Assembly: GCA_040218735.1 (NCBI GenBank)
Contig: JAVJQW010000008.1
Span: forward strand, 1-64,000
From: Deltaproteobacteria bacterium
Lineage (GTDB): Bacteria; Myxococcota; Kuafuiibacteriia; Kuafuiibacteriales; Kuafuiibacteriaceae
DNA: 64,000 bases
Direction of reading: 5' to 3'
Below the pieces are notes generated by a model. The model saw only the letters and a list, made by a program, of their open reading frames with translations, did no database searches and had not been told where the DNA came from. A program made the translations under genes and the position numbers. Below, piece after piece: positions 38,166 to 61,763 of this stretch; position 1 is the stretch's first letter, and every line of letters starts with the position of its first letter.

Positions 38166-38192
38166 AGTCGTGGGTCCTTCCTTCGGTTCTTC

Positions 38193-45700: not shown

Positions 45701-46457
45701 CGCCGCGTGCATCCTCGGAGTCGGCGAGGCGGTGTATCGGTTCGGCGATCTGGAGCGCGCGGAGCGTTACTACGAGCAGGCGCTCTCACGCTTCGAAGCG
45801 CTGGACGACGCGGGCTCCATCGCAGAGTGCCTGGAGGGCCTCGGCTTCGTCGCGCTGTGGCGCGGCGACGTGGAGGAGGCGGCGAGCCTCTTCGCGCGAG
45901 ACCTCGCGCTGCTCGAGTCGGCCGGTAACCGCCTGAAGCTCGCTCGCGCGGTGGGTGCGATGGGGGAGGCGGCGCGACAGGCCGGGCACCTCGACGAAGC
46001 GGAGCAACACTACCGGCGCGCGCTCGCGATCGACGAGGCGATCGGTTCGAGCTCGACGTGGTTGGACCGGCTCAACCTCGGGTTGGTGCTCCTCGCGCGC
46101 GGTGAGTTCGAGCAAGCGCACCAGATCATCGAAGCGGTGCGCGCGACGCTCGGCGAGCGCGGCGAGCCATCCCAGATGTGGGCGGTGCACTGTCAGCTGC
46201 TCCCGACGCTCGCGGAGAAGCGCGACTGGGACGCGTGGGACCAGCACTACCGCGAGGGAACCCGCCTGCTGAAGGCGCTGCGCCTCAAGGACGGCGACGC
46301 CGCCTGGCTCCTTGCCCTCGCCGGCGACCGCGCACGCCTCGCCGACGCCCCGGTGCGCGCGCGCCACGTCTACGAGCAAGCTCTCGCGCAGTGGCAGGCG
46401 TTGGGCCGCCCGGACAAGGTCGCCGAGGTCGAAGAGGCGATCGCCTCACTCGGCTAA
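42705..46457 (+). CDS. Ser/Thr protein kinase + P-loop ATPase + TPR repeats (tandem paralog)
   Basis: HRDLKPGN, DFG, APE; GAAGNGKS; WLEDVQW; GNPLF; TPR-like repeats. Confidence 0.92.
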   Translation: MSPRPIPLGPFELLSPLGRGGMAIVWEGVHRGQGVPVAVKVITSSRARQQRFRRAFGSEVQAVASLEHPGIVMVLDHGEVTKEAQDASEGKLMAGSPYLAMELASWGSLDKVHTPLRWDDLVRTLLGLLDALAHAHARGVIHRDLKPGNVLMSAPTDVRPGLKLTDFGIAHALDHEVREGDESSGTPHFMAPEQFMGAWRDYGPWTDLYAVGCLSCVLASGKLPFSGDSAVQLAYAHLNRPPPDLEGAPEPFVNWVHRLMQKDPRDRYRHAADAGWALMRISDKLAKKKKLRGLSAVPDSPMRFVPTEVTEAAKEDTPPDLPTELEPNVDLEDGTAVELSVAAVRNLGAAIPTHDVNPLPPVTIVGDEGELATVMGHTRAGLTLPWVGEQGFTPASGMTPASVRPLSIGEVRAPPLAPRDLPPLPRTWRREQNVRVSMPLVGAGLGLYGLRAIPMVDRDEERDTIWSTLRTVREERTARAIVLRGAAGNGKSRVVEWMTQRANEVGSAHVLKAVHGPIAGPLDGIARMVARHLRCADLPRDKIFERTKKLLTEDGISDEYEWAALTELMSPAMTLDPQTQQRHVRFSNRAEQHVLVRRLLERLAKKRPVIVWLEDVQWGSDAVNFAAHMLRAQAQSPSSVLLLLTVRDEALEERPLETKTVADLAALPGCSSVQIAPLSKLDQERLVSELLVLDGELASQVADRTDGNPLFAIQLVGDWVQRGVLEVAESGFVLQRGEDAQLPDDIHQLWTRRINRVLGGQPKASRLALEVAATLGHEVEADEWQATVAEYGEQIPPLLLILLIEHRLAVSEGEAWSFAHGMLRESMERSAKERGRLQEHHRACARMLEARYGARAPGVPERLGRHYLAAREHVRALGPLLEGARARFATSEFAEALALIKLREEALEHLQAPEDDVRWGECWILRARINTVQGHFDAAQRWAERAERQAQRWNWQDILPLALERLAHVAHERGDQKVSIDRFEAAKALFERNEDHHGIAACILGVGEAVYRFGDLERAERYYEQALSRFEALDDAGSIAECLEGLGFVALWRGDVEEAASLFARDLALLESAGNRLKLARAVGAMGEAARQAGHLDEAEQHYRRALAIDEAIGSSSTWLDRLNLGLVLLARGEFEQAHQIIEAVRATLGERGEPSQMWAVHCQLLPTLAEKRDWDAWDQHYREGTRLLKALRLKDGDAAWLLALAGDRARLADAPVRARHVYEQALAQWQALGRPDKVAEVEEAIASLG

Positions 46458-48520
46458 CGCGGCGGCGCGCGCGACGGCCACTGATACACCCCGCCCGCGT
46501 ACGTCGCCGCGACGACGCGACCACGGCCCACGGTGAGGTTCCACGGCAGCCACGAGGTCTCGAGGACCTCGACCAGCGTCGGGAGCGCCGGGTTCGAGAT
46601 GTCGACCACGGACACTCCGTCCAAGAGCGCGACGAAGAAGCGGTCGCCCGCGAGCGCGACCGGGCCTCCCGTGCGGTCGCTCCCGGCGGTCCATCGGCCG
46701 AGCGGCACCGGCGCGGCGGGCACGGAGATGTCGTAGACGTGCACGCCGTCCTCGCACGCGACCACGAGGCGGGTGCCCTCGATCGCGACACCCACGCCGG
46801 AGTCGCAGTCCGATGCGTACGCGACGAGCTGGATGTTCGTCGGGTCGGCCACGTCGTAGACGTAGAGCCCACCCGGCAGGCCGAGCGCGGACGCCGCGAC
46901 GAAGACGTGGGTTCCGCTGCCCTCGATGTCGCGCACGAACGCGCTCGGGTGTGAGCCGAGCTCCGTGGGCCCGTCGCGGCCGCCCGTCGAGAAGACCCGG
47001 ATCGAGCCGCCGTTGGTCCCCTCCCCCACCACGACGTACGGACCGGCGAACGTCAGCGCGGTCGGGTAGCCGGCGGTCGGCACCGTCGCGATGACGGTCG
47101 GGTTCGTCGCGTCCGAGATGTCGAAGGCCCACAGCCCCGTGAACCAGTCCGCGACGTAGGCGACGTCTCCGTCGACCACGACCTCCTCGAAGTCCGTGTC
47201 CAGCTCCCAGTGACGGCCGAGCAAGGTGAGGTCGTCCGCGCGCAGCACGCCGACGGCGCCAACCGCGCCGGGCGCAGTCTCGGTGACGGCGATGCGCTGG
47301 CCCCACGTCGTCGCGGAGTAGCAGTACGCACAAGGCCCGGTGTGGGTCTCGCCGAGGGAGGTCGCGCCCGACGTAATGTCGAACGCCTCGACCATGCCCT
47401 GGTAGTCGACGAACACCAGGCGGCCCGCCTCCGCGGCGCCGGCGGTGAGCGCCCAGATGCCGGTGCCGTACGACGGGCTCGCGACGATCGCCGCGGGGTT
47501 CGAGAGATCGAGCCGTCGCAGCTGACCGTCCGGGTTCAACCAGACGCCGTCTTCGTCCGCGGCGGAGGCGTAGATGGGTACGGCGGGGCTCGTGTACAGC
47601 CGCGTCAACGACGGGAGCGACGCGAGGTCCTCGACCGTCGCGCCGTTGTGACCTCGCGTCAGGAGCAGCCCGCCCGGGAGGAGCTCGCTCCCCACCACGC
47701 CGAGGTTGGCGCGCCCGAGGGACTCGAACGTCGTGGTGTCGAACGCCTCGACCGCACGTTGTCCGTTGAACGCATTCGACACCGCGAGCAGGCGGCTGCC
47801 GTGCACCCGCAGATCGACGACGTGGTACGTCTCGATCATCGACTGCACCACCGGCCGCGCCGGGTCGGCGAGGTCGAGGATGTAGATGCCGTGCTCTGCG
47901 TCCGAGACGTAGAGACGGGTCCCGTCGATCAACGTCGCGACGAGTCGCGAGTACGTCCCGTTGCCGAGGCGCATCACGCCGACCTCGACCGGGTGGCCGA
48001 TCGTCGACGTGTCGATGACGTGCAGGTGACTGTCCAACGAATCGACGGTGGTGACGTACGTGTAGTCGCCGTGCGGAGCGATCGCGCTGACCAACCCCGA
48101 GAGCGCTTCACTCTGACCGAGCCGCGCTGGCTGTTGTGTCACGTCCCAGATCGTCAGACGGGGCCCCACGCCGACGTACGCGAGCCCTTGGTACAGCTCG
48201 ACGGTCTCGGTGCGACCGCCCGCATGCTCGACGAGGATCGGGGGCTCGGGATCTTCGACGCCAGCGTCGCGGCCCCCGTCGTAGGGTTCGGTCCCGCCGT
48301 CCCGGAACCCTGCGTCGCGCGGCACGCTTGCGTCGGTGACGAAGCCCGCGTCACGTTCGGTCGCGGCGTCCATGGGTTCGAACCCCGCATCGCGGTGATG
48401 CGGGACGTGAGCGTCCGGTGTGCTCGGGTCGATGTCGGTGCCGCCGGGGCACCCGGTGAGTACGGTGAGCGCGATCGCAGCGATCACTGCGGAGGGATGG
48501 AGACGTCGCACGAGCATCAT
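46454..48520 (-). CDS. LVIVD-repeat beta-propeller lipoprotein
   Basis: LTGC lipobox; RDAG repeats; many YV.D...GL...DIS.P..P repeats. Confidence 0.85.
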   Translation of the reverse strand: MMLVRRLHPSAVIAAIALTVLTGCPGGTDIDPSTPDAHVPHHRDAGFEPMDAATERDAGFVTDASVPRDAGFRDGGTEPYDGGRDAGVEDPEPPILVEHAGGRTETVELYQGLAYVGVGPRLTIWDVTQQPARLGQSEALSGLVSAIAPHGDYTYVTTVDSLDSHLHVIDTSTIGHPVEVGVMRLGNGTYSRLVATLIDGTRLYVSDAEHGIYILDLADPARPVVQSMIETYHVVDLRVHGSRLLAVSNAFNGQRAVEAFDTTTFESLGRANLGVVGSELLPGGLLLTRGHNGATVEDLASLPSLTRLYTSPAVPIYASAADEDGVWLNPDGQLRRLDLSNPAAIVASPSYGTGIWALTAGAAEAGRLVFVDYQGMVEAFDITSGATSLGETHTGPCAYCYSATTWGQRIAVTETAPGAVGAVGVLRADDLTLLGRHWELDTDFEEVVVDGDVAYVADWFTGLWAFDISDATNPTVIATVPTAGYPTALTFAGPYVVVGEGTNGGSIRVFSTGGRDGPTELGSHPSAFVRDIEGSGTHVFVAASALGLPGGLYVYDVADPTNIQLVAYASDCDSGVGVAIEGTRLVVACEDGVHVYDISVPAAPVPLGRWTAGSDRTGGPVALAGDRFFVALLDGVSVVDISNPALPTLVEVLETSWLPWNLTVGRGRVVAATYAGGVYQWPSRAPPR

Positions 48521-48645
48521 GAGATGACCCTCGAACCAGCCTTTTCGATTTTCAGGGGAAGGAGTCACCCACGCCCCAGTGGCGTGGATGAAAAAAGCAT
48601 CTGCTCACATCCGAACGCTCGTCAACGAAGTTCGACGGCCCCGCG

Positions 48646-49848
48646 TCAGTTACCGGGACCGAGGCTGCGCAGACGTTCCTCGGCGTCGAGGCGTTCGTTC
48701 TCGTGCGCAATCTTTCCGGACACGACGCCGCCGCAACCCGGGCAAGTCTCTTCGCCACCGTCGAGGGCGTGCGCGCAGTTCGGGTCGGAGCACTTCGAAA
48801 CGTGCTGGCGGTACGCGAAGCGGGCGACCAGAGTCACGAAGACCGCGGCGCCCATGTACGCGACGATCCCCAGTTTCGGGAGCGCAACGAGACCGACCAC
48901 CGCCCCGATGCCACCGCACAACAACCACCCGGGTCGAAACGTCCGCTCGACGTGGAACACACGACGCCCGGCGACGGGCGCCACCTCCGGTTCGGGCTCG
49001 GGGTCCGGCAGGTCGAGGAGCGCCTGGGGCACGGACGTGATCGGGTCCAGCGCGCCCGGGTCGAACGGGTCGTTCCCCTCCGGCGGCGCGCTGACGGCGG
49101 CGCGCAGGGTGTCGTCGTCCTTCAACGAACGCAACGCCGCCGCGAACATCGCCGCCTGGGTGGTCTCCAGCTCGCCCTTCAGCCGACGCACCGCCGAGCC
49201 GTCCAACCCGCGTGCGTCGGCGTACGCGGCGAGCGCGAAGCTCATCGCCTGCGGCGGGAGGTACCCGAGCGAAGCGTGTGACCACTCCGTGTACGCCATG
49301 TAACCGACGAGCTCGCCGGAGCTTCGGTACAGGTAGCTCGCGTTCGTGCTGAGGAGGCCGAAGCCCAGATAAATCGTCGTGAGGTCCGTGAGGCGCTCCT
49401 CCTCCTCGGCGTCCTCCGACTCCAACCCGTGGTAGCAGCGAAAGGCGTGCGCGACCTCGTGCGCCATGGCGGCGACGAGGCGCTCTGCATCGCCGAGCAA
49501 CGTGACCTCGGCGCCGAAGTGACAGGTCGTGCCTTCGACCCCCGCGAACCAGGCCGCCGCGCCCGCGTGGTGCGACTGCGTCCCGGACGCCGTCGTCTCG
49601 ACGACCGGTTGCTCCCCGACGAACACCGCGATGCTCGGCTCCAGCTCGCCCAACCCCGCGAACCCGAGCAACCGACGCGCGAGCACGTACACCCCCGCGG
49701 CGTTCGGGGACCACGCGTCGACGAAGAAGGTGTCGTTCGGCAAGACGATCGCTGCGTCGAGGATTCGCTGCCGACCGCAGGCATCCACGAGATCTCGGAG
49801 TCGCTCGAGGATCCACGTGCGCTCGGCGGGCGTGGGGAGCTTCTGCAC
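48646..49848 (-). CDS. Hypothetical HEXXH metalloprotein with TM hairpin and C-terminal zinc ribbon
   Basis: MAHEVAH, EERLTDLTTIYLGFG, GYL; two TMs; CSDPNC...CPGC. Confidence 0.75.
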   Translation of the reverse strand: MQKLPTPAERTWILERLRDLVDACGRQRILDAAIVLPNDTFFVDAWSPNAAGVYVLARRLLGFAGLGELEPSIAVFVGEQPVVETTASGTQSHHAGAAAWFAGVEGTTCHFGAEVTLLGDAERLVAAMAHEVAHAFRCYHGLESEDAEEEERLTDLTTIYLGFGLLSTNASYLYRSSGELVGYMAYTEWSHASLGYLPPQAMSFALAAYADARGLDGSAVRRLKGELETTQAAMFAAALRSLKDDDTLRAAVSAPPEGNDPFDPGALDPITSVPQALLDLPDPEPEPEVAPVAGRRVFHVERTFRPGWLLCGGIGAVVGLVALPKLGIVAYMGAAVFVTLVARFAYRQHVSKCSDPNCAHALDGGEETCPGCGGVVSGKIAHENERLDAEERLRSLGPGN

Positions 49849-49858
49849 GAGCGCGAGC

Positions 49859-50809
49859 CTAAGCCGAGAACCCCGCCTTGCGAAGCGCGGAGCGCCCGCG
49901 TGCGCCGATCGGGTTGTCGTCGAGTCGGAGCGTGCACCGGCCGGGGTCGATCACGTTCGCGAGCGCCGTCGCGCCGCGGTCGCCGATGTCGGCGTCCGAG
50001 AGATCGAGCCGCCGCAACGCCTCGGCGGGCCCGGCGGCGAGCAACGCGTCGACGCCATCGTCGTCGATCGGATTGCTCGCGGCGACGAGGCTCTCGAGGT
50101 CGCCGAGCCGCGCGACCGCCGCGACGCTCGTCGTCGACGTGCTGGCCACGTTGAGGAGGCGCAGACCTCTACGGCCGGCGAGCGCCTCGACGCCCTCCGT
50201 CTGCAGCGGGTTGTCTTCGAGGTAGAGCGATCGAACCCCCGCGAGGTGCGGCGAGTCGCCGAGCGCACGCGCGCCGCGCGAACCGACGCCGTTCATCCGA
50301 ATGTTCAGCTCCACGACGGAGCGAAGGCTCGCCGTGTTCGCGACGAGCTCGGCGCCCGCGTCGCCGAGCTCGTTGATGCCGAGGTGCAGCTGCTCCAGCT
50401 CGGCGGCGAGCGGGCTGTCGAGGACCGGCGCGAGGCCGTCCGCGGTGAGTTGGTTGCAGCAGAGGTTGAGGTTCTTCAGCTGGGTGAGTGACTTCGAAGC
50501 CGCGAGGTGGGCAGCGCCCTCGTTCTGCAGGTCATTGTTGTAGAGGTAGAGAGTGCGCAGGGCGGAGAGTACCTGCGCCTCGGCCAGCGTTCGCGCCCCT
50601 GCCTCGCCGATTCGGTTCCAGCCGAGGACGAGGTGCCGCAGGCCGGGGCCGACGTTGTCGACGAGCGCGCGCACCGCGGCGTCGTCGAGGTCGCAGCGCA
50701 TGAGGCGGAGATCTTCGATGTCCCGGTTCGCCGGGTCCTTCAGTAGCGCCGCCACGGCGTCGGCGTCGAGCGCGCGGCCGATGACGCGCAGCGAGGTTCG
50801 TTCGGCCAT
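49859..50809 (-). CDS. Leucine-rich repeat protein (RI-like/GALA-type)
   Basis: Repeated L..L.L..N.IGD.GA..LA units. Confidence 0.9.
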   Translation of the reverse strand: MAERTSLRVIGRALDADAVAALLKDPANRDIEDLRLMRCDLDDAAVRALVDNVGPGLRHLVLGWNRIGEAGARTLAEAQVLSALRTLYLYNNDLQNEGAAHLAASKSLTQLKNLNLCCNQLTADGLAPVLDSPLAAELEQLHLGINELGDAGAELVANTASLRSVVELNIRMNGVGSRGARALGDSPHLAGVRSLYLEDNPLQTEGVEALAGRRGLRLLNVASTSTTSVAAVARLGDLESLVAASNPIDDDGVDALLAAGPAEALRRLDLSDADIGDRGATALANVIDPGRCTLRLDDNPIGARGRSALRKAGFSA

Positions 50810-50832
50810 GGGTCGAGTCTATACTGGATGGG
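50810..50832. promoter_or_regulatory. Candidate bidirectional leaderless promoter
   Basis: The 23-bp gap between divergent ATGs contains TATACT (+, 7 nt before ATG 50833) overlapping TAGACT (-, 6 nt before ATG 50809). No SD motif. Confidence 0.5.
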
Positions 50833-51729
50833 ATGAGCGAGTGGTGGGCGCTGACGGTCGAGGTCGAGGGAACACCGCGCGTGCTCCGCGCGCGGACCAG
50901 CCAACGCATCATGATCGGGCGAGCGCGGACGTGCCCGATACTCATCCCGGCGGCGACCGTCGCTCGCCAGCACGCCAGCCTGGACGTCGACGTCGACGGC
51001 CGTGTGTTCCTACAAGACCTCGGCTCCTCGAACGGCGTGTGGCTCGACGGCGAGAAGATCCTGCGCGCCGAGCTCCCGGTCGGCGCCGAGTTGATGCTCG
51101 GGCGCGGCGTCGTCCGCTTCGTCGGCGTCACGCCGGCCGACGCCCCGCAACGCTGGGTCCTGGGCGTGGAGCTCACCCGCGACGGTGAAGACGTCCGCGA
51201 GCGTTTCGAGCTCGGGCCGACCGACAGCGTGAAGGTCGGCGGCCCCCGCCCGGACGTCGCCCTCCGCCCCGACCGATGCACCGTTCTTCGCGTCGACGGA
51301 GGGGTCATCACCGTCGTCCGGCCCGAGGGCCAGCACACCCACGACCCGAACACCCCGCTCGACATCGACGGCACCGAGGTCTGGCTCACCGTCACCCCCG
51401 CCGTCCACGCTCGGCCGGTCACGACCGCGCCCCACGCGGAAGGGAGCGACGCCGCCTGGCGCATCCGCATCGGCGGCGCCGGCCTCACCCGCGAGTTCGA
51501 CGTCGCGACCCACGAGCGCGTCTTCATCGGCAGCGCCGACGAGTGCTCACTGGTCCTGCGCGACGCCAAGGTCGAGCCGTGCCACGCGACGGTCTCCGTC
51601 GACCACAAGGGCCGCCTGATCGTGGAAGAGCAAGCACGCGACCCCGCGATCCGCCGCACCCACACGGAGGACGCCGCGCTGATCGTCGGCCCGTTCGACC
51701 TCGAAGTGGGGATCGCTCGCCTGAGTTGA
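50833..51729 (+). CDS. FHA-domain protein (one clear and one degenerate FHA)
   Basis: IGR...C.I......VARQHA...L.DLGSSNGV; second IGS...C...L....V...HA. Confidence 0.85.
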   Translation: MSEWWALTVEVEGTPRVLRARTSQRIMIGRARTCPILIPAATVARQHASLDVDVDGRVFLQDLGSSNGVWLDGEKILRAELPVGAELMLGRGVVRFVGVTPADAPQRWVLGVELTRDGEDVRERFELGPTDSVKVGGPRPDVALRPDRCTVLRVDGGVITVVRPEGQHTHDPNTPLDIDGTEVWLTVTPAVHARPVTTAPHAEGSDAAWRIRIGGAGLTREFDVATHERVFIGSADECSLVLRDAKVEPCHATVSVDHKGRLIVEEQARDPAIRRTHTEDAALIVGPFDLEVGIARLS

Positions 51730-51735
51730 CGCGCG

Positions 51736-54700
51736 TCAGGTCGAGGTGCGGCCGCGGAAGGGAAGGACCAGATCGGGCTCGGGCTTCGAGGCGTCCCTGA
51801 GGCCGTGGATGAAGTAGAAGGCGCCCTGCTTCTTCGACGTGACGGAGTAGAAGCCGAGGCGCCCGAGCCCCGCGCAGAAGGCCTCGATGTCGTCGAAGTA
51901 GTTGGCCGGCTCCCAGATGTGGATCTGCCCGTCGACGTGCAGGCACCGGTGCGCTTCGCGGATGTAGTCCGTGAAGTTCGCGCCCATCAGCGAAAGGCAA
52001 AAGATCGCGACGTCGAGGCTCTCGTTGTCCTGCGGAACCGCCGCCAAGTCGCAGGCCTGGACGTGTTCGTTGACCGCCACGTGGTCGAAGCTGAAGACGC
52101 GGTGTTTGTCTTTCACCGCATCGGCGATGAGTGCCTCGCCACAGCCGAAGTCACCAATGTCGAACCCCTCGCGAAGGTTCAGCCAACGAATCTCCTCCTC
52201 GAACGGCACGACGTCCCAGCTCTTGCGAATCTCTTGGTACATCGTGTGGTAGTGCGCCCACTCCTCGGGGTTGATGCTCAGCCGATCGTGGGTCTTGTGA
52301 CTGGTGCTCGCGTACCACCGGTTGTTCATGACGCCGAAGTCACCGTACCTGCGCGTACGCTTCGCGACGTCGCCGGGCTCCCGGGAGAGCGGGACCTTGA
52401 TGAGCTTGCGTTCGATGGTCTCGAGCACCCCCGTTTCGAGCCGGTCGAGCCAACCCATGATGTCCTGCTGCGCTTGCGCCTCGGTCCTCAGGTTGCCTTC
52501 GGGCACGACACCATCCACCGCTGCGTCCGCGATCGACTTCTTGTACTCGAGGCGATGTAACTTGGACTCGCAGTACGACCAGCGCTCGCCGTTTACGTAC
52601 GCGTAGGTCACGGGGATGACGACCTTCACGCGCTCGAACTTGCTGCCCTGTCGCCAGAGCCTCGCACGGAGCTGCTCGTACTCCGCGTTGGTCCACGGCA
52701 GCGCGTTGAGGATCAGCTTCCCACAGACATGCTGTAACCCATCGACCCCGGTACTCACCCGGCTCGAAGCAATCAGAACGTCGACGTCTCCGTGCGGCTT
52801 CTTGAACTCATCGAGCGCAGAGTCATCGCTCTTGCCGGTGAACAACCCCGGGCGAAAGCCCGCAGCTTTCACCGCGTCCCAGATCTGACTCGCGATGCCG
52901 TCGACATAGTGCGTGTAGATGAGTGTCTTCGTGCCCGGTTCGAGCTGCTCGACGATCGTGGGGAGCCGGATGCTGGTCAGGACCCGCTCCATCTCCAGGA
53001 CGGTCCCGCGCCCGACCCGCCGGATGGCGTCGAGTCGGTCCGCGCAATCGATCTCGACCTTCTCCGTGTCGAGCTGGGTCGTGTAGTCCGGCTTCCAGCG
53101 CGTCCCCAGCGTGACGAAGCGCTGGTAGAGGCGCATGCAGTTCTGGACCGTAGCCTTCGTCTCCAGGTCTTCGTGTTTGTAGCCCGTGATCATCTCGACG
53201 AGGCTTCGCCCCTCCTGCAGCGTGTTGATGACCGGCGTGCCCGACATCCCGAGCACACAGAGCTCCGCGTTGCGTTTGCCGCCCTCCAAGACCAATGCTT
53301 GCACCAAGCGCTTGCGGCGACTCATCTGCTTCTCGTCCCGCTGTTTCGCGAAGTGGATCTCGTCGATGACCACGAAGTCCACGACGTGCCGCGCGATGAA
53401 GTCGACCAGCTTCGCCTCCGAATCGGGCTGCTGAAACTGCTCGAAGTTCATGATGAGGTAGCGGGGTGCATCCGAGAGGTCGTCGCCCCACGTCGGCTCC
53501 CAGGTCTTCGTTTCGACACGCGACACCGGGAAGGCGTTCTTCACCTCGCGCTCCCAGTTGCTGACGACGGCGTTCGGGCAGCAGATGACGGTGAGCGACG
53601 ACTCCGTGAGGCGCGTCGCGAGCACCGCGCTCAACGTCTTGCCCGCCCCCATCCCCGACCAGTTCCCGAAGCGTCGCTTCTCGGAGACGCTAACTGCGAC
53701 GTGCCGCTGCATGAGGTGTGGTGGACAGACGTCGTGTGCGGGCGTCGGGCGGAACGCGTAGCCTTCGGGCAGCGCCATCTTCTGCGCAGCGTCGAACTCG
53801 GTGAGGAAGCGGTCGCGCACGATCGTCGAGTACGCATCCCCCTCGAAGCTGCGGGCCTGCGCCTCGGCTTCTTCGGGGACGCGATAGGCGTGCCTCCATA
53901 ACTTCGCCTTGGCGCTGTCGAGGAGGAACTTCACCGTCTCCGCGTCCGCGTTCGCGACGAGTGTGCTGTCCAGCGCCGCCAGCGCGTCCCGCGTCTCCAC
54001 GACGGGGAGCCGGTAGATGTCGAGGGTGTCTCCAGGCTCCTCCGGCTCGACACTAGGCTGGTCTTCGATCGCCGCCGAGACGTCGATGTCCCCGTCGGAC
54101 TCGTAGGCGCTGTCCGGTGCGTCCGGCAGCGCGAAGGGGTCATCCGGCGGGGCCCCCGTCTTCTTCTTCTCGGCCGGTGGGTCCTGCAGCTCCAGGGTGA
54201 AGTCTTGGTTCGTGGCAAACTCATCGACGAGCGACGGTTCGTCACGTGAGAACTTCTCGAGCTCCTCGATCGGGAACCTGCCCGTAGTCAGCGCGCGCAC
54301 GAAGGCGGTCGATGCCCCTCCGCGTAGCGCACCCGCCTGCATGGCCAACGCGAACATCTCGCTCGGCGTGAGGACGTCGAGGTGTCCGAGGAGCGACTGA
54401 ACGAACGCTCGGATGCTGTCGAGCGTCCACGCTCCGTAACACTGCGGGCAGCGACTTCGAGAACGGGTGCGGCTACGGACGCCCGCGCGGAACTCGTGCC
54501 CCTTCGAGCAGAGCCACCACGCGCTCATCTTGTGGTCGGGGTCCACCTGTTCGGCGCTCAGGTCGCCGTTCTTGTGCGGATGCCACTCCGACGCGATTTC
54601 GGGAAACCGGGCCGCCAAGGAGTCACTGGCCAGCGCGCAGTGCGGGCAACCGTCGTCCGTGACCATCTGCAGAGGGCTCCTCCGGAAGCTGTGTCCTTCG

Positions 54701-55023
54701 TCGCAGACCCACCACACCGGCGCGTTGTGGCCCGCGTCGATCGCGGCCGGAGTCGTTTCGTTCTTGGCAGGGTGCCAGCGCTTCGCAAGCTGCGGATGGG
54801 TATCAGCGAGGCTCGCTCCTCCCAGCGCACACTGCGGGCAGGACGGATCCTTCGACATCATCCGCGGCTTGCGCTCGAACGAGTGCCCGTTCGGACACTT
54901 CCACCACACCGTTCGATAACTCTTGGCCTGGTGTGCGGAGGCGGGCTTTTCGTTCTTGGCTTCGTCCCAGAGCGCGAGCAGCGCGGGGACGTCCGAAATC
55001 ATGTCAGCCATCGTCGTCTTCAC
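51736..55023 (-). CDS. Multidomain protein: 3x zinc ribbon (DUF4379-like) + SF2 helicase/ATPase + Rrp8/nucleomethylin-like SAM methyltransferase
   Basis: Three WW.C..GH.F...CP.C repeats; GMGAGKT, DEIH, SGTP, GVDGLQ, Q...RLWRQG; C-terminal YH..Y...W...P, IGDFGCGEA.IA, V.SFD, ACD...VP..NESLDVAIFCLSLMG.N..DYIREA.R.L...G...I.E. Start may be ATG at 55011. Confidence 0.85.
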   Translation of the reverse strand: MKTTMADMISDVPALLALWDEAKNEKPASAHQAKSYRTVWWKCPNGHSFERKPRMMSKDPSCPQCALGGASLADTHPQLAKRWHPAKNETTPAAIDAGHNAPVWWVCDEGHSFRRSPLQMVTDDGCPHCALASDSLAARFPEIASEWHPHKNGDLSAEQVDPDHKMSAWWLCSKGHEFRAGVRSRTRSRSRCPQCYGAWTLDSIRAFVQSLLGHLDVLTPSEMFALAMQAGALRGGASTAFVRALTTGRFPIEELEKFSRDEPSLVDEFATNQDFTLELQDPPAEKKKTGAPPDDPFALPDAPDSAYESDGDIDVSAAIEDQPSVEPEEPGDTLDIYRLPVVETRDALAALDSTLVANADAETVKFLLDSAKAKLWRHAYRVPEEAEAQARSFEGDAYSTIVRDRFLTEFDAAQKMALPEGYAFRPTPAHDVCPPHLMQRHVAVSVSEKRRFGNWSGMGAGKTLSAVLATRLTESSLTVICCPNAVVSNWEREVKNAFPVSRVETKTWEPTWGDDLSDAPRYLIMNFEQFQQPDSEAKLVDFIARHVVDFVVIDEIHFAKQRDEKQMSRRKRLVQALVLEGGKRNAELCVLGMSGTPVINTLQEGRSLVEMITGYKHEDLETKATVQNCMRLYQRFVTLGTRWKPDYTTQLDTEKVEIDCADRLDAIRRVGRGTVLEMERVLTSIRLPTIVEQLEPGTKTLIYTHYVDGIASQIWDAVKAAGFRPGLFTGKSDDSALDEFKKPHGDVDVLIASSRVSTGVDGLQHVCGKLILNALPWTNAEYEQLRARLWRQGSKFERVKVVIPVTYAYVNGERWSYCESKLHRLEYKKSIADAAVDGVVPEGNLRTEAQAQQDIMGWLDRLETGVLETIERKLIKVPLSREPGDVAKRTRRYGDFGVMNNRWYASTSHKTHDRLSINPEEWAHYHTMYQEIRKSWDVVPFEEEIRWLNLREGFDIGDFGCGEALIADAVKDKHRVFSFDHVAVNEHVQACDLAAVPQDNESLDVAIFCLSLMGANFTDYIREAHRCLHVDGQIHIWEPANYFDDIEAFCAGLGRLGFYSVTSKKQGAFYFIHGLRDASKPEPDLVLPFRGRTST

Positions 55024-55035
55024 CCTCTGCGTTGG

Positions 55036-57906
55036 TCAGCGAGGACCGGGGAGCGGCGGCGGCTCGATGCAGTCCGTCGAGAACCACCGCGGGTCCTGGG
55101 GATCGAGCGCCTCGCCGTCGACCAACGGGAGCCCGGGACCCTGAATCGCCTCGCCGGCGGCCTCGTCCTCCGCGAGCGCGAGGTTCATCTCCAGGAGGAA
55201 CTCGGTCGCCTCCTGGTCCGCCGGCTTCCCGTAAGCGGCCTCTACCGCCGCGTCGAGCTTGGCCTGCGCGTCCTTGAGCGGATGAGGCCCCGCGACCTCG
55301 GCGGAGCGGTAGAGCTCGCGGAGCGACCAGCCGTTGGCGTCCATGAGCTCCCGGCGCGTCGCGCGGAGCTGCTGGGCGGCCTGCCCGACCGCGATGACGT
55401 CGTCGAGGGTGGGTTCCTGCGGCCAGGGGAAGGTCTTCCAGACCTTGGAGGTATAGCGAATGTCGCTCTTGAGTCGGCCACCCTTGGCTTTGGTCCAGGC
55501 CCAGTGCAGTGAGGACTGAATGATGCCGAAGCTGTAGTCATCCTCGTATGCGAAGAGTTGCAGTGTGTTCGTCGGAACGAACTTGGTGGAGATGAACGTG
55601 AAGATCGGGCGCGTCTGAGGACTCGCGCACACGACGTGACGAGCGTCGACGCCCCTTCGTCGCACGAACTCGAAGTATCGAGCGCTCGGATCGCGAGGCA
55701 TCCACCATCGACGAAGCCAACCTGCGTAGTGTTTGGTCGACTTGGGGTTCGATGCGCGCGCCTCGATCATCGGATAGACGTGCGCGCGCAGATGCCGCGC
55801 CGCGGTCGGACTCGCCGAGCGTGCAAGCTCCTCGGTCGAAGAGTCCGCCAACCATGCGCAGTACCCGGGTTGCGAGACCAGCTTGCCGCCGAGCATGTCG
55901 CCTCCGGTGGCGATGGGCCGCGCGACCCCGTCGTCTGCGGCCCCGCGAAGTGTCTCGCCCGTCACGACGAAGTCGGAGCTCCCGAGAATCACACCGAGCG
56001 CGGTCCCTTCGGCGTTCGAGCGGAGCGTTCGCGCGCCCTTCAGATCGGGCTGAATCCGTAGCTCCGGACCCACGGCATCGACCTCGTAGATTCGGTCGGC
56101 GACCTGAAGTCGGAAGGGCCCCTCTCGCGATTGCAGCGTCCAGTTGACGATGCTTACGTTCAGAACGGCGGCGCCGCCCCAAGCGCGAGAGGACACCGCA
56201 TCCGTGATGGTTCCGCCCGCGTTGACGATGTACTCGAGCGACATCTCGTTCGCACGACCGACTCGAATCCCGCTCGTTCCGATGAGTCCTGCGCGTCCAG
56301 TGTCAGCGAGGCGATCGTGCGCGCGCCGAAACCAGTGCGTACACAAGTCGACATTGATCGTGCCGTATCGCTCGCGAAGTCGTGCGAGGTACTCACGCCC
56401 CAACTCCTGTCGTGCCTTCTGTGATCCCAAGAACGGTGGGTTCCCGACGATCGCGTCCGCCTCCGGCCAATCCGTGAACAGAGCGTCGGCGCACACGATG
56501 TTCTCATCCAGGTTGTCCAGCGGCAGCGACGGATCCACCTCGATCGGGAACTGACCGAACTTCGCGAGCACCTCCTCCTTGCGCTGTTCGAAGGCGATCT
56601 TCTTGGCGATGTTGAGCGTCGTCTTCGCGAGCTCGACCGCGAACGGGTTGATGTCGATGCCGAAGAAGTTCGTCGTTTCGATGCGGGAGTCCCACGTCAC
56701 CGCTCCCTTGCCGCTCGTCGCCGACGGGAACGCCTCGTAGATCCGGACCAGCACCTCCGTCTCGAGGCGGTAGAGCTCGCGGAAGGCGACGTACAGGAAG
56801 TTGCCGCTCCCGCAGGCCGGATCGAGCACCCGGTACGTCCGCATGTCCTTGAGGATGGTCTTCAGCTGCTCGAGCGTCTTCGCCGCCCCGATGCGCTCGC
56901 GCCACGGCTCGACGATCGTCGGGCCGACGACGCTCATGATGTCGTCGCGCGCCGTGTAGTGCGCCCCCTGCGCGTGGCGCTCGGCGTCGTCCATCACGCC
57001 CTGGAACACACTCCCGAAGATGTGCGGATCCACGTGGATCCAGTTGGCCTCCGCCGCCTTCGTCAACGCCCGCAGCACGGCGTCGTTCAACGCCAGGTCC
57101 GTCGCGCCTTCGAAGAGCCCTCCGTTGAAGTACGGGATCGACTTCGATTCCTCGTCGCGCTCCGCGCGGGGGGTGTTCATCCATCTGAACAACTCGCCGA
57201 GCTTCGCCTCCGCGTCGCCGTCCACGCCCGCCTGATACAAGAGCGCCGTGAAGTACTCCTTGGGCAGCAGCCCGATGTCCTCGGCGAACATCGCGACGAT
57301 GCACCGCAGCGTGAATCGAATGGCGTCGTCCCGGCGCTCCGGGTTCTCGGCGGCGAGCGCGCGGTAGACGTGCGCCACGAGGTCGGCGACCTCCTTGCTG
57401 ACCTTGTCGACGTTGATGATCTTCGGCGTCGTCCCGGGGATCCAGTCCGGCGCAAAGAAGGGGAACGCTTCGCTGTACTTGGGCAGCTCGTCGAGCGCCA
57501 GCGTGAGTCGAGGGGCGTGCCGATCGTTCGCGAGATCGTAGAGCCGCACATCGCGCTGATTGGTCAGCACGACGTACTGCGGCTCGGCGTCCATCTGGAC
57601 GCAGGCCCGATACAGCTCCCCCCAAGCGAGGTCGAGCAGCAGTTCACGATCGACCACGTCGACGACCACCCGACGTTCGGACCCGTAGGCCGCGACCGTC
57701 CTCCTGGCCTTCTTGCCCGCAGCGACGATCCCGAACTCATGACGGAAGTCGAACGCACCGTCGTCGTCGACCAGCCCGAAACAACGAATCAGCCTCTCGG
57801 CGAACGTCGCCCCGGCGTTCCGCCCACGAATCCCCCCCGCAGCTTCGAGCGCGAAGCGCCTGAGCGCCATCTTCGTGCTGGCCGCCGGCTGTCGCCCCTC
57901 GTGCAT
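55036..57906 (-). CDS. MmeI/YeeA-like (Type IIL) N6-adenine DNA methyltransferase with degenerate N-terminal nuclease domain
   Basis: MFAED.GLL, PYFNGGLF, IFGS.FQ, GAHYT, LDPACGSGNFL (motif I), GNPPFLG (motif IV), FGI.QS..H..W, RYT....TFPWP, L..A...LD.AV..AYG. Start is ATG 57906 or 57870. Confidence 0.9.
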   Translation of the reverse strand: MHEGRQPAASTKMALRRFALEAAGGIRGRNAGATFAERLIRCFGLVDDDGAFDFRHEFGIVAAGKKARRTVAAYGSERRVVVDVVDRELLLDLAWGELYRACVQMDAEPQYVVLTNQRDVRLYDLANDRHAPRLTLALDELPKYSEAFPFFAPDWIPGTTPKIINVDKVSKEVADLVAHVYRALAAENPERRDDAIRFTLRCIVAMFAEDIGLLPKEYFTALLYQAGVDGDAEAKLGELFRWMNTPRAERDEESKSIPYFNGGLFEGATDLALNDAVLRALTKAAEANWIHVDPHIFGSVFQGVMDDAERHAQGAHYTARDDIMSVVGPTIVEPWRERIGAAKTLEQLKTILKDMRTYRVLDPACGSGNFLYVAFRELYRLETEVLVRIYEAFPSATSGKGAVTWDSRIETTNFFGIDINPFAVELAKTTLNIAKKIAFEQRKEEVLAKFGQFPIEVDPSLPLDNLDENIVCADALFTDWPEADAIVGNPPFLGSQKARQELGREYLARLRERYGTINVDLCTHWFRRAHDRLADTGRAGLIGTSGIRVGRANEMSLEYIVNAGGTITDAVSSRAWGGAAVLNVSIVNWTLQSREGPFRLQVADRIYEVDAVGPELRIQPDLKGARTLRSNAEGTALGVILGSSDFVVTGETLRGAADDGVARPIATGGDMLGGKLVSQPGYCAWLADSSTEELARSASPTAARHLRAHVYPMIEARASNPKSTKHYAGWLRRWWMPRDPSARYFEFVRRRGVDARHVVCASPQTRPIFTFISTKFVPTNTLQLFAYEDDYSFGIIQSSLHWAWTKAKGGRLKSDIRYTSKVWKTFPWPQEPTLDDVIAVGQAAQQLRATRRELMDANGWSLRELYRSAEVAGPHPLKDAQAKLDAAVEAAYGKPADQEATEFLLEMNLALAEDEAAGEAIQGPGLPLVDGEALDPQDPRWFSTDCIEPPPLPGPR

Positions 57907-57944
57907 CGCGCTGACATACACCAATGCGGAGCCCACATGGAGGC

Positions 57945-58511
57945 TCACCGCAGGCGCAGCATCAGCAGCACCACCGTCGCGCCCACCACCAGCAACGCCG
58001 CAACGATCAGCCACAGCGGCGGCCCCGCGTCCGCCGGCATCGCGATGGTCACCTCCTGCACCGCGTACGCGCGTTTGCACGACACGAGCACGACCTTCAC
58101 GCCGTACAGGTCCTCGTCGAGCGGGATCGCCTTGCGCACGACCTCCAGCGTTCGCTTCGACTCGGGCGGCACCAACGACTGCACCTCGGTGCGGAACGCG
58201 CGGCCGCCGCCGGCGAGTGTGCGCGCCGAGCGCGTGGGGAGCGCCTCGGGCCGAGTGTTCTCGATGTCCTCCAACGACGCGCCGAGGAACACCCCCAGCT
58301 CGGCCGCCGTGATCGCGACCGTCGCCGTGGAGCGCACGTCGACACGGACCGTGACGTCACGGCGCGTCGGTTTGCCTTGGAACATACGCGTCGCATAGCG
58401 CGCGGTGGCGCTCACGACTTCGAGTTGCTCGGTGCAGTCGGGCTCGGCCCACGCCGCGGACGGCGCGGACGGCGCGAGCACGAGCACCCAGGCGAGGTGA
58501 CGAATCAGCAC
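57945..58511 (-). CDS. Hypothetical exported protein with C-terminal membrane anchor
   Basis: N-terminal signal-like segment; C-terminal TM followed by RLR. Confidence 0.65.
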   Translation of the reverse strand: MLIRHLAWVLVLAPSAPSAAWAEPDCTEQLEVVSATARYATRMFQGKPTRRDVTVRVDVRSTATVAITAAELGVFLGASLEDIENTRPEALPTRSARTLAGGGRAFRTEVQSLVPPESKRTLEVVRKAIPLDEDLYGVKVVLVSCKRAYAVQEVTIAMPADAGPPLWLIVAALLVVGATVVLLMLRLR

Positions 58512-58528
58512 TCAGGCGAAGCGACGAA

Positions 58529-61500
58529 TCAGGGGAGGCACGCGACCGTGTAGGTCACGGTGATCACCGCGCCCGCCGGCGGGACCGCCGCGGCGCTGAA
58601 GATGATCGTGTTCGTCGTGTTGTCGTACTGCCAGTTCTGCTGGCCGCCCGCCGTCGTCATCGGGATCGCGTTGCCGTCGACGGTCACCGCCAACGTCACC
58701 GGGACCGGCGTCGACGACAGCGAGAACTGCCGGCGCAGACCGAACGAGTTCAGACCGATGTTCGACAGCGTCTGACCCCAGTTCGCCGCGCAGATCGACT
58801 CGACGACGCCACCGGTGTTGTTCGCCACGTTGATGTACCGCGGCGCGTACTCCGCGTTGCCACCCGGGCCGTTACACGACGGCGACTGCGTACCGACCAC
58901 CGAGCTCGCCGAGAACATCGCCGTGTTCGAGAAGCCCTTGATGTTGCGGAGGAAGTCCTCGTAGAACGCCTGCGTTCGCGACGACTGGTCGCGCTCGTCG
59001 CTCACGAAGATGACCGCGAGCGCCGCGTCGGTCCGCAAGAAACCCGCGTTCGCCGTGTTGATCAGCGGGTCGGACAGCGCGAGGTACGCCGCCTCCAGGC
59101 CGCGCTCCGTGCCGGAGCCGCTCGTCCCGAGCGACGTGTTCTGCTGGAACACCGTGTTTGCGTTCGGCGTCGACGGCGTGATGATCCGCGTCGACCCGAC
59201 GAAGGTCCCCGCCTCACCGCTCGACGTCACGTCCGTGGTCGTGACCGCGATCTGGTAGTCGATCATCTGCTGCTGCGCGAACGACAGGAACGCGCCGAGG
59301 TTCGAACCGAGGCTCGCCTGCTCCTGAGACATCGAGCAGCTGTTGTCGACAACGAACAGCACGTCGGCGCGCGGCGTCGGGAGCTGCTGGAACGTGTCCG
59401 TCACCGTCGGGTTGATCTGCCCCTCACCCTGCAGCGGCACCGCCGACGGGATCATCGAGTCCGAGTGCGAGATGAACAGCACCCCGGTGTCCGTGCCGAT
59501 GTCGGCCGGGTGGTACCGCAGCTGAATCGTCACCGAGCCACCGGCCGGCAGCTGCGCGGGCGTCGCGAACGGCGTGAGCTCGAACTCCGGCGACGTCGTC
59601 GGGTCGAGGTACACGTTGTTGATCGTGATGACCGAGCTGCCCGTGTTGTAGACCGTCACCGTCCGCACCGGCGAACGACACGTCACCGGCACCACCGCGA
59701 AGTCGATCGACGACGGCACGACGAGCACGTTGCTCTGCTGGCTCCCGCCGCTGACCGGCACCTGCACCGTCGGCTGACTCGGGTCGTCCGCGTCGAACTC
59801 CAGGAGGGTGTTGTGGAAGCCGTAGTCCGTCGGCGCGTAGGAGATCTCGAGCTGGTGCCGCCCACCGGACGCCACCGTGACCTGGCCGCCCTGCGCGCCC
59901 GCGTTCACCGAGAACTCGACCGCACCGCTCAGGCGAATGTTCTGCACGAGGCACGGCATCGCCCCGGCGTTGCGAATCTCGACCGGCAGCGTCGCCGTAC
60001 GACCGCGCTCCACGAGGCCGAACGTCAGCTGCGAAGGCGCGACGTTGATCGAGCACGTCGTCGGCACACCACCGACGCCCATGATCGGCACCGTGAGGTT
60101 CGGCTCGTCGCGATCGTCGGAGATGATCTCGATGTCCGCGCGGTCCGGCCCGGGGTCGATCGGGTTGTACGCGAGCTGCAGCTCCACGGAGCCGCCCGCC
60201 GTGATGGTCGTCGGGAACGCACCCGGCAGCCCGCCGGAGATCGAGATCTCCGACGAGGACGCGTTGATCAGGTTCATCGCGCTCACCGTGAGGGGCGTGT
60301 TGCCGGTGTTCTGGATCGACAGCGTCCGCATCGTGTTGCCCTCGACCGCCACCGTGCCGAAGTTCACGATCGGCGGGAACGCGACCACGTTCGGGCCGTT
60401 CGACGTCGCGGTGAGCGACACGTGACCGGTCGAGTCGCAGACCATCGCGTTCGGATCAGCGCACGCGTTCGTCACGACTTCGATGCGGCCGTTGTCCTCG
60501 CCGGGCGACGTACCGATGTAGCGCACGTCGACCGGGAACTCCTCGTTGGGCGCCAACGTGCGCGGGAGGATCTGCGACGGGATCGCCTCGTACTCCATCG
60601 TCGTCCCGCGCTCGAGCGCGACGCTCATGACCTCGAAGTCGTAGCTACCGATGTTCCGCACCACGAACTGACGTGTGACCGGCACACCCTCTTCCACCGC
60701 GCCGAAGTCGAGCGAAGCGGGGTCGAGCTCGAAGATCGGCTTCACACCCTCGCCGGTCAGCGTGACCGTCTGCTGGCACGTCGGGCAGTAGCTGACGTCC
60801 ATCTGGTTGGTGTGCATCCCCTCCTCGGGGGGCTGGTAGAAGACCTTGATCGTCAGCATCCCGTTGCCGGGGATGCTGCCCATGAAGGGCTGGTCGAACG
60901 GCGTCTCCTGGTTGTCGAGCGTGGTGGTCCCGAAGATCACCGACGTCTGGTTCATCGGCGGGATGGTCACCGGCTGCGCGAACTCGGTGCCGTTCGTCAT
61001 CGTGAGCTGGACTTCCTTGCGCGTGTCGACCGTGACCTGACCGAAGTCGATCGCCGTGGTGGAGAACGACACCTGCGGCGCGATGCCGGTACCGGACAGG
61101 TTCAGCGTCGTCGAGCCGCCCTGCGCGTTGTGCATGATGATCAGCGACGCGTTGAATTCACCCTCCGTCGCCGGCGTGAAGTCGATGCGGAACTCGCGGT
61201 CGCTGCCCTTCTCGACCAACCACGCACCGTTGTCCTCGGCGGGGTTCTCGAACAGCGGCGCGAACGGTGTGCCCTCGGGCTGCACGCGGGACATCTCGGT
61301 GCACGTGGGGAGCGTCGTGCCCTCGATGCAGATGCGCAGCCGATCACTACCGGCGTTCGCGACGCCGACGAAGAGCGTCTTCGTCGCACCGAGCGGCACC
61401 CGCTCGAACGCGACGTCCGTCAGCTCGACACGCATGTCCTCGGGGACCGTCGGATCGTAGAGGCTGATCTGCGGCGCGAGGCGGGTGATGGTGTCGCCAC

Positions 61501-61597: not shown

Positions 61598-61763
61598 CTT
61601 CGTCGTTCCCCAAACCCAGTCCGGCACGAGCGCCCCCTCTGGACGCACGGCCACACCCGATCGCCGTTCAGTGTGGGGTCCGACACACGCCGGGCCCATC
61701 CTACCGCTGACGGATGGGGCAGCCGCCTTTGGTTTCGGGAGGTTGCGAAACGAGACGTCCGTC

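Follow-up and report, generated by a model that had tools for sequence, protein, structure and literature searches.

A Snf2-type motor protein ending in an Rrp8-type methyltransferase domain and its conserved pairing with a nuclease-motif-less MmeI-family gene in a Polyangia clade

We analyzed the first 64,000 nucleotides (nt) of contig JAVJQW010000008.1 from a member of the Myxococcota (assembly GCA_040218735.1), a stretch of DNA referred to here as the window. On its reverse strand the window encodes a 1091-amino acid (aa) protein in which zinc ribbons, a helical region and a Snf2-type ATPase are followed by a methyltransferase domain of the Rrp8/nucleomethylin type, and directly upstream lies a gene for an MmeI-family N6-adenine DNA methyltransferase. 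What is newly seen is that this pairing, of a Snf2-Rrp8 gene with an MmeI-family gene lacking the nuclease motif, is conserved in a Polyangia clade. Motor-methylase dyads and nuclease-less MmeI homologs accompanied by a helicase are kinds of system already known; the catalytic domain is the unexpected part. Our preferred reading, held tentatively, is that the Rrp8-type domain serves as effector or co-effector of a DNA-tracking motor in a restriction-modification-like two-gene cassette.

Identity of the C-terminal methyltransferase domain

The domain that gives the protein its interest is located at the C-terminus:

51778..52344, reverse strand: Rrp8/nucleomethylin-type S-adenosylmethionine (SAM) methyltransferase domain, residues 894-1082 (PF05148, 2ZFU, invariant residues)

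A preliminary description of the window had likened this domain to Rrp8/nucleomethylin and had named a grouping with generic Methyltransf_11 enzymes as the result that would speak against the likeness. The profile searches uphold the assignment. In Pfam the whole protein matched PF05148 (Methyltransf_8) with an E value of 1.7e-44 and 152.7 bits (cut-off 27) over model positions 13-202 of 219, whereas Methyltransf_11 scored 14.8 bits, under its cut-off of 21.2. With the domain alone as query the corresponding values were 156.6 and 17.9 bits. A phmmer search of the PDB sequences returned a single match, 2ZFU (E 1.6e-30, aligned over 2ZFU residues 10-196), which is human RRP8 deposited under the title 'Cerebral protein 1', and a profile built from 67 diverse family members matched the same entry at 1.2e-59. 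The comparison with the RRP8 structure suggested in the preliminary description gave a concordant result: in a Foldseek search against PDB the domain of the AlphaFold2 model superposed on 2ZFU chain B with a target-based TM-score (TMt) of 0.87 and a root mean square deviation (rmsd) of 1.4 A over 202 columns at 30% identity.

All of the motifs listed in the preliminary description can be read in the translation of the open reading frame (ORF), as HYHTMYQEIRKSWDVVPFEEEIRWL, DFGCGEALIA, VFSFD, ACDLAAVPQDNESLDVAIFCLSLMGAN and EAHRCLHVDGQIHIWE; the spacing between the second tyrosine and the tryptophan of the first motif is six residues and not the four originally given. The span first assigned to the domain, 51760-52300, took in most of it and left out approximately 45 nt at its N-terminal end.

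Residues S908, Y925, H926, W936, G960, G962, D980 and D992 are invariant in all 79 rows of a diverse family alignment. The SAM-binding motif I (DFGCGEA) is intact and holds the two invariant glycines. In yeast Rrp8, G209 is required for SAM binding (Peifer et al., PMC3553958), and we infer from the position of the motif, rather than from an alignment with the yeast protein, that G960 or G962 is its counterpart. Conservation in the 79 rows extends beyond the SAM pocket to the Rrp8-specific N-terminal helices (Y925, H926, W936) and to the LSLMG-N stretch after motif IV. Within the clade, the mean pairwise identity of the domain is 70%, near the 74% of the motor, and the domain is therefore under constraint much as the motor is. 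The domain is thus a genuine member of the Rrp8 family and not a generic class I methyltransferase. Some bacterial proteins already carry the NCBI name 'RRP8 family class I SAM-dependent methyltransferase'.

Architecture of the motor protein

The ORF (51736..55023, reverse strand) is free of stops from a GTG at 55023, and the database copy of the protein begins at the ATG at 55011. Upstream of the methyltransferase domain the following features were assigned:

51736..55011, reverse strand: gene for the 1091-aa protein with zinc ribbons, helical region, Snf2 ATPase and Rrp8-type methyltransferase (ORF and database copy)
54433..54966, reverse strand: three tandem DUF4379 treble-clef zinc ribbons, residues ~20-197 (PF14311, E 3.5e-38, three matched stretches)
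53704..54432, reverse strand: all-helical region, residues 198-273 and 337-440 (secondary structure and predicted local distance difference test (pLDDT) of the model)
52534..53703, reverse strand: Snf2-type two-lobe ATPase core, residues 441-830 (Foldseek, profile search, invariant columns)
52354..52533, reverse strand: conserved linker from motor to methyltransferase, residues 831-890 (a 'link' module found family-wide; 76% identity in the clade)

The AlphaFold2 model, computed with a 79-row family alignment, has a mean pLDDT of 87.2 and a predicted TM-score (pTM) of 0.72, and is disordered only at residues 1-4, 274-336 and 848-852. In the model each zinc ribbon unit consists of a two-strand hairpin and a short helix. 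The second of the disordered stretches is an acidic linker that interrupts the helical region, at the end of which lies the Q motif of the ATPase (M438, Q439).

The preliminary description had spoken of a helicase fusion, and this holds: Walker A, DExH and Helicase_C share one ORF with the methyltransferase. Helicase_C was found by Pfam, while SNF2 and DEAD matches stayed below threshold. Walker A residues G459, G461 and K462 and DExH residues D554 and E555 are invariant in the family rows. The best Foldseek matches of the ATPase were all to Snf2-family proteins, namely Mot1, Chd1, Ino80 (TMt 0.71, rmsd 4.3 A), Snf2h, CSB and ISWI, and the profile of 67 members matched Fft3, ISWI and CHD1L at 1e-10 to 1e-8. 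Judged by these matches and by the model, the ATPase is a Snf2-type motor with intact Walker A and DExH motifs and two predicted RecA-like lobes. No nuclease fold was recognized in the model or by Foldseek, and the helical region is devoid of a beta-rich nuclease-like fold.

The upstream MmeI-family partner

The gene upstream of the motor gene was assigned as follows:

55036..57906, reverse strand: MmeI-family N6-adenine DNA methyltransferase with helical spacer, target recognition domain (TRD) and C-terminal domain (Pfam, PADLOC, PDB)
57331..57867, reverse strand: N-terminal domain, residues 72-250, kin to the MmeI nuclease domain (two of three PD-ExK positions substituted)
55411..56145, reverse strand: specificity domain (TRD), residues 646-890 (most variable part of the partner family)

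The start of the partner is probably the ATG at 57906 or that at 57867; the frame is open up to 58080. Pfam found MmeI_Mtase (2.4e-36), MmeI_hel, MmeI_TRD and MmeI_C, and the protein matched the PADLOC model REase_MTase_IIG (PDLC03599) at 4.9e-221 and the MmeI structure 5HR4 in PDB at 2.8e-48. The DPACGSGNF motif for SAM and the NPPF motif are present and conserved in its family. The TRD is the part that diverges most, with a mean pairwise identity of 46% versus 69% in the methyltransferase core and 74% in the spacer (27 rows).

The N-terminal domain was compared with that of MmeI, in which the catalytic nuclease residues are D70, E80 and K82 (Morgan et al. 2009, PMC2731913). Pfam MmeI_N aligned with the partner only over positions 105-180 of 181, whereas three canonical relatives, which share 37-40% identity with the partner and have no adjoining helicase, matched the model from position 2 or 16 to 180. 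Where the canonical relatives have an aligned D...E-M-K, the ten rows of the partner family have A, L, V or T in place of D, D or E in place of E, and V or A in place of K, and none of the 30 partner-family rows inspected contains a D...ExK pattern. The acidic residue of ExK is thus kept; in addition K70 and R136 are invariant in the domain, and R137 and D177 nearly so. Going by these substitutions, the partner is probably a methyltransferase and specificity subunit with an inactive nuclease domain. Since the PD-ExK residues are not in place, the name of the PADLOC model should not lead to its classification as a Type IIL enzyme able to act alone, and the database label 'Type IIG restriction enzyme' is probably wrong about the nuclease for this MmeI subgroup. 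A helicase gene has been reported to flank MmeI homologs that lack the nuclease motif (Morgan et al. 2009, PMC2731913).

A complex prediction for motor residues 1-830 and partner residues 72-240, made without control runs (score 0.00, mark 0.32), speaks neither in favor of binding nor against it.

Linkage of the two genes and their genomic setting

Linkage was assessed in 43 related loci, nearly all from metagenome-assembled genomes (MAGs) titled as myxobacterial (Polyangia-type). Forty-one of these have a strong match to the motor and 35 include at least 500 nt of upstream sequence. An MmeI-like gene lies upstream of the motor gene, on the same strand, in 34 of the 35, one of the 34 being represented by a 32-residue piece at a contig edge; the sole unlinked locus contains just the final third of the motor gene. 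The two genes are separated by 24 nt in the window, where both are on the reverse strand, and by at most 35 nt in 25 loci. Other loci carry genes inserted between the pair: a RhuM family gene in two, PIN_10 with DUF433/HTH in one, and the ABC-3C components CTD10/DUF2326 in two. The nested inserts are located, in the coordinates of the respective loci, as follows:

L040 6821-8005, L034 6941-8005, L008 5637-6987, L007 506-1600 and L037 2080-5125: nested inserts in related loci

At one further locus (L163, 8817-11432) the motor gene is cut short at 205 aa, just past the three zinc ribbons, and the genes after it encode ThiF (E1-like) and Prok-JAB proteins, a combination typical of ubiquitin-like conjugation defense modules.

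The G+C content of the cassette is 0.64-0.67, versus 0.69-0.72 in its surroundings, and comparison with a genome of the same genus located the cassette within an indel:

46446..57942, no strand: 11.5-kb segment missing at the matching place of a same-genus genome (contig C765 of genome G108)

Contig C765 matches the window over 44964-46445 and then, 14 nt later, over 57943-58691. The segment holds the two-gene cassette and four unrelated genes (an LVIVD-repeat gene, a gene for a 400-aa protein of no assigned family, an LRR gene and an FHA gene). The lowered G+C content is confined to the 52-58 kb part, so the segment may be composite. Among 401 sampled genomes of the window's phylum, four gave a strong match to the domain, as did none of 14 control genomes at the same threshold. 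Taken together, the hypervariable TRD, the nested defense genes, the lower G+C content and the location in an 11.5-kb indel suggest that the pair in the Polyangia clade is a mobile restriction-modification-like cassette.

Two observations concern the number and form of the cassettes. Four MAGs (L003/L027, L012/L029, L031/L163 and L007/L162) contain two MmeI-like genes or two whole cassettes on different contigs; these could reflect several specificities per genome, with binning errors as the alternative. At locus L002 (4749-11291) a single frame is open through the MmeI-like and motor genes (2181 codons), with the MmeI-like match split over two frames, the explanation being a frameshift in the assembly or else a fusion of the two genes.

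The genes that flank the pair in the window are ordinary myxobacterial genes with no counterparts at the 43 related loci. A conserved third gene was considered and rejected, as neither the 188-aa ORF at 57945-58511 nor the flanking genes have counterparts at the other loci. This ORF, which encodes a product with hydrophobic N- and C-termini and no family match, adjoins a gene for a 1056-aa protein (58529-61699, reverse strand) with repeated ASH/HYDIN/Cep192-type Ig-like domains and DUF1573; these families are mostly known from eukaryotic cilia proteins. Further away, 38168-42646 and 42705-46457 on the forward strand encode tandem giant proteins of 1492 and 1250 aa, each with a Ser/Thr kinase, an AAA_16 ATPase and TPR/MalT-like repeats.

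The wider Snf2-Rrp8 family

A search with the methyltransferase region that returned full-length candidates gave 580 clusters at E <= 0.001; among the 120 of these that were listed, PF05148 was present in all and DUF4379 in 113. An exhaustive search with the domain only gave 2550 representatives at E <= 0.001 and 176 at E <= 1e-30. Of the best 150 representatives, 72 have at least 800 aa, and of these 72 the motor core connected with the domain was found in 69, the helical 'mid' module in 62 and the zinc ribbons in 25. In other clades Sigma70_r4, RNA_pol_A_CTD or HNH_repeat modules are found at the N-terminus, and the N-terminal extensions across clades, DUF4379 included, are DNA-binding modules.

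Eighty diverse family loci were collected in a locus search with a 10-row alignment. Their bacterial sources include Bacteroidota, Cyanobacteriota, Chloroflexota, Planctomycetota, Verrucomicrobiota, Chlamydiota, Dependentiae, Acidobacteriota and Myxococcota, and their archaeal sources include Nitrososphaerota and Thermoplasmatota. Full-length copies also occur on three plasmids, Crinalium pCRI9333.01 and two Rhodococcus plasmids, one copy being near FtsK/SpoIIIE and single-stranded DNA-binding protein (SSB) genes. Motor and methylase share one ORF at 21 of 28 IMG/VR loci, on AT-rich contigs of up to 501 kb, and no viral hallmark genes were found among the neighbors on two IMG/VR contigs. No copy with motor and methylase was found among 50,697 phage records.

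Members from other genomes show some variation in layout. On the 501-kb IMG/VR contig (L144, 1981-8918; G+C content 0.26) five consecutive INT_rpt, DUF723 or DUF4379 genes lie directly upstream of an 879-aa Snf2-Rrp8 gene, which has no N-terminal array of its own; the DNA-binding array seems to be encoded separately there. Two other Myxococcota genomes encode family members of 1559 aa (L130, 8488-13164) and 1656 aa (L131, 7870-12837); Sigma70_r4 is present in relatives of such members. The third-position G+C content of these two genes is below that of neighboring genes, which suggests recent acquisition.

No account of bacterial Rrp8-type proteins or of the gene pair turned up in our literature search, although a listing in supplementary files is possible, and the name 'Rrp8' is absent from the text of two relevant surveys (PMC12839542 and PMC5512222).

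Phylogeny and the link to eukaryotic RRP8

Two unrooted trees of the methyltransferase domain were built. The first, made with FastTree, was limited to rows in which the domain spans 165 aa or more, 122 out of 151. The second, made with IQ-TREE in quick mode (LG+G4), also had 122 rows: the window, seven helicase-less rows, 18 representatives and one row per full-domain locus. Eukaryotes were represented by four named animals and three helicase-less rows, with fungi, plants and protists outside the sample. In both trees the four animal RRP8 sequences and the three other helicase-less rows stand together on one long stem with a Shimodaira-Hasegawa-like approximate likelihood ratio test (SH-aLRT) support of 100. 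This stem attaches among the Snf2-fused prokaryotic rows, next to a long one, with a support of 87, and the program marked the attachment as a long-branch join. The prokaryotic phyla do not separate in the trees, which points to frequent transfer.

On the strength of its sequence, the prokaryotic domain is a relative of eukaryotic RRP8. The preliminary description had also raised the possibility that it is the progenitor of the eukaryotic enzyme. As worded, this does not follow from trees that are unrooted, connect the eukaryotic stem through a flagged long-branch join and include four named eukaryotes, all of them animals. A link of giant viruses to eukaryotic Rrp8 was also considered, the Atlas listing one Nucleocytoviricota cluster with PF05148, and was rejected: the 23 IMG/VR rows in the tree group with Bacteroidota, Bdellovibrionota, Spirochaetota or Cyanobacteria and not with eukaryotes.

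Proposed function and alternative explanations

The cassette combines two methyltransferases and one ATPase with no intact nuclease motif, and the Rrp8 domain is for this reason proposed as its effector or co-effector. In the mechanism that we envisage, the MmeI-like protein would read a DNA motif and mark host DNA with N6-methyladenine (m6A). On unmarked, foreign DNA it would engage the motor protein, which would track along the duplex with ATP, and the Rrp8-type domain, the motor's only other catalytic part, would methylate bases exposed by the motor. By analogy with Rrp8 the target might be N1 of adenine, giving a lesion that blocks replication and transcription. The methyltransferase would thus stand in for the nuclease of related motor-plus-methylase systems. 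The Snf2 fold, the presence of DNA-binding modules and a partner that is a DNA methyltransferase are the grounds for taking DNA to be the tracked substrate, and coupling of the two proteins is proposed because of the operon statistics. That this coupling is physical, that DNA is the substrate methylated, that the chemistry is N1-adenine methylation and that the outcome is directed against invaders is what we infer from these comparisons.

Several observations weigh against this proposal. Those relatives of the domain that have been characterized methylate rRNA and not DNA (Peifer et al., PMC3553958). The Pfam SNF2-rel_dom score of the motor, 22.7 bits, is slightly under the cut-off of 24.9 (relative P0229 reaches 38.9), and its helicase matches in PADLOC and NCBIfam (DrmD, BrxHII, DpdE) are weak and below threshold. 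The nuclease-like domain of the partner, in view of its kept acidic and polar residues, may have residual or altered activity. An MmeI-like neighbor was found at none of the 80 diverse family loci (tblastn, E 1e-4), clustering of the flanking ORFs gave no other conserved neighbor there, and three further Myxococcota copies with longer N-termini had no MmeI-like match, one of them on a contig without upstream sequence. The core family must therefore work without an MmeI-like partner, and the defense reading cannot simply be generalized. A standalone DNA-damaging enzyme would need control, and none was identified.

The MmeI link was accordingly dropped as a family-wide trait: most lineages have a Snf2-Rrp8 core that works alone, and a single clade has recruited the partner. 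The suggestion of the preliminary description that the domain belongs to a conflict system fares differently at the two levels. For the Polyangia clade it is supported by the MmeI operon, the nested defense genes and the patchy, indel-like spread, but it cannot be carried over to the family as a whole.

A bolder form of the proposal is restriction by methylation, in which the MmeI-like methylase, its nuclease domain dead, would direct the motor onto unmarked DNA and the Rrp8-type domain would then place N1-methyladenine (m1A), or a different methyl mark incompatible with base pairing, on the DNA of the invader and so stall its replication and transcription, with the corollary that RRP8/nucleomethylin would descend from this prokaryotic radiation. 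We consider this version, corollary included, rather improbable. In a different setting, the AlkB demethylases encoded by plant RNA viruses hint at antiviral pressure through methylation damage.

The alternative that survives best, although we regard it as unlikely, is that the protein is a protective or epigenetic motor-methylase dyad acting processively on its own replicon, in line with the proposal for DarB of phage P1 and for the polyvalent proteins of plasmids and phages, the methylation of that DNA shielding it from restriction or setting an epigenetic mark while the MmeI-like gene merely travels along. The presence of the family on three plasmids and at 21 of 28 IMG/VR loci would fit such a role, as would the many members that stand alone, and the SWI2/SNF2-adenine methylase dyad is widespread in mobile elements and linked to anti-restriction (Iyer et al. 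2017, PMC5512222). The dyad described there, however, uses an N-terminal EcoKI/TaqI-like N6-adenine methylase and not a C-terminal Rrp8 domain, and m1A would disturb the base pairs of the very element that carries the gene. The strict operon with a nuclease-motif-less specificity methyltransferase and the nested defense genes fit host defense better, and the phage records yielded no copy.

It is also possible, with a lower probability still, that the enzyme is directed at RNA and methylates rRNA, tRNA or nascent RNA, either shutting down translation in an abortive infection response to foreign DNA or modifying ribosomes in an accessory manner. The characterized PF05148 members are rRNA m1A methyltransferases throughout (PMC3553958), the Rrp8-specific N-terminal helices and active-site residues are conserved, and the rRNA m1A enzyme Bmt2 is among the Atlas look-alikes with a score of 0.79, which is a lead only. 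Snf2-type motors, however, track duplex DNA, and both the accessory modules, which bind DNA, and the partner, which methylates it, point the same way; bacterial rRNA is, according to Peifer et al. (PMC3553958), normally without m1A. A housekeeping rRNA enzyme was rejected in view of the patchy distribution (four of 401 sampled genomes of the phylum) and the absence of the segment from the congener.

Exclusion without base damage is very unlikely in our judgment. It would rely on translocation or a roadblock on unmarked DNA, as in BREX, with the Rrp8 domain acting as a SAM sensor or scaffold that licenses activity. Such a role would accord with the lack of a recognizable nuclease in the cassette and with the need of BREX defense and methylation for the SAM cofactor (10.1101/2024.04.12.589305), but conservation past the SAM pocket (Y925, H926, W936 and LSLMG-N in the 79 rows) exceeds the expected needs of a ligand sensor.

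Equally hard to credit is conventional restriction, in which the altered MmeI-like N-terminal domain (through a non-canonical site) or an unlinked nuclease would cut and the Rrp8 domain would be accessory: related motor-plus-methylase systems normally have a nuclease (PMC12839542; Morgan et al. 2009, PMC2731913) and the acidic residue of ExK is kept with K70, R136 and, nearly always, R137 and D177, but the catalytic D and K are substituted in all ten aligned rows, no D...ExK occurs in the 30 rows, MmeI_N matches in its second half only, and no conserved nuclease gene stands beside the pair, the flanks having no counterparts at the 43 loci and the inserts varying from locus to locus.

Significance

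In known motor-plus-methylase defense systems (Type I, III and ISP restriction-modification, DISARM and BREX-related systems) the last step falls to a nuclease or to an effector about which debate continues. In the cassette described here the position of the nuclease is empty, and the sole extra catalytic part is a well-conserved methyltransferase whose family has until now been known solely for a eukaryotic rRNA m1A enzyme. Should the domain prove to act on DNA, it would represent a DNA methyltransferase of a new type and perhaps a novel means of disabling foreign DNA, and it would set the origin of RRP8/nucleomethylin in a prokaryotic context that can be tested. With its two genes, the cassette is compact enough for direct testing.

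Comparison with known systems

Membership in two defense systems was examined and rejected. For DISARM (class 1), the NCBIfam DrmD model scored 22.9 bits against a cut-off of 610, the DrmMI matches in PADLOC were weaker than that of the Type IIG model, and no helicase, DUF1998 or phospholipase D (PLD) family was found in the six flanking genes scanned against Pfam. For BREX and the BREX-related (BR) systems, the NCBIfam PglX models scored at most 40.9 bits against cut-offs of 400-900, and no PglZ, BrxC or DUF499 gene was found within the 11.5-kb segment.

With RRP8/nucleomethylin, the 25S/28S rRNA m1A methyltransferase, the domain shares the DFGCGE motif I, the acidic residues after strands 2 and 3, the FCLSLMG-N stretch and the N-terminal helices. 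In contrast to the eukaryotic enzyme, it sits at the C-terminal end of a prokaryotic, zinc-ribbon-bearing Snf2 motor, has no nucleolar N-terminal region and is part of a DNA-modification cassette.

The DarB-type dyad (PMC5512222) is likewise a single polypeptide uniting a translocase of the Snf2 type with a SAM methyltransferase, and it occurs in mobile and conflict contexts. Its methylase is of the EcoKI/TaqI-like N6-adenine type and N-terminal to the helicase, whereas here the methylase is of the Rrp8 type (PF05148) and C-terminal. We therefore do not count the protein as a member of this group, and the likeness is functional only.

Closer in gene content are the YeeA/YeeB/YeeC group of B. 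subtilis (PMC2731913), which shares with our cassette an MmeI-like methyltransferase-TRD protein without the nuclease motif beside a helicase, with presumed roles in specificity and self-marking, and DISARM DrmMI with DrmD and the BR systems (PMC12839542), in which an MmeI/PglX-like m6A methyltransferase-TRD protein stands beside a superfamily 2 (SF2)/Snf2 helicase. A 2026 survey of BREX describes systems of N6-methylase and Snf2 helicase-nuclease (PMC12839542). As presented in these sources, such systems add a nuclease, be it the GIY-YIG protein YeeC, the PLD protein DrmC or a restriction endonuclease (REase)/HKD domain fused to the helicase, and often also core genes (DrmA/B, DUF499). Our cassette has neither; its helicase carries the Rrp8-type methyltransferase.

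Type ISP enzymes (LlaGI, LlaBIII) share the motor, the m6A methyltransferase and the TRD, parts that act on a single DNA site by way of ATP-driven translocation. They combine these parts with an Mrr nuclease in a single polypeptide, whereas in the Polyangia cassette the parts are divided between two polypeptides, with no active nuclease motif and with a second methyltransferase, the Rrp8-type domain, on the motor.

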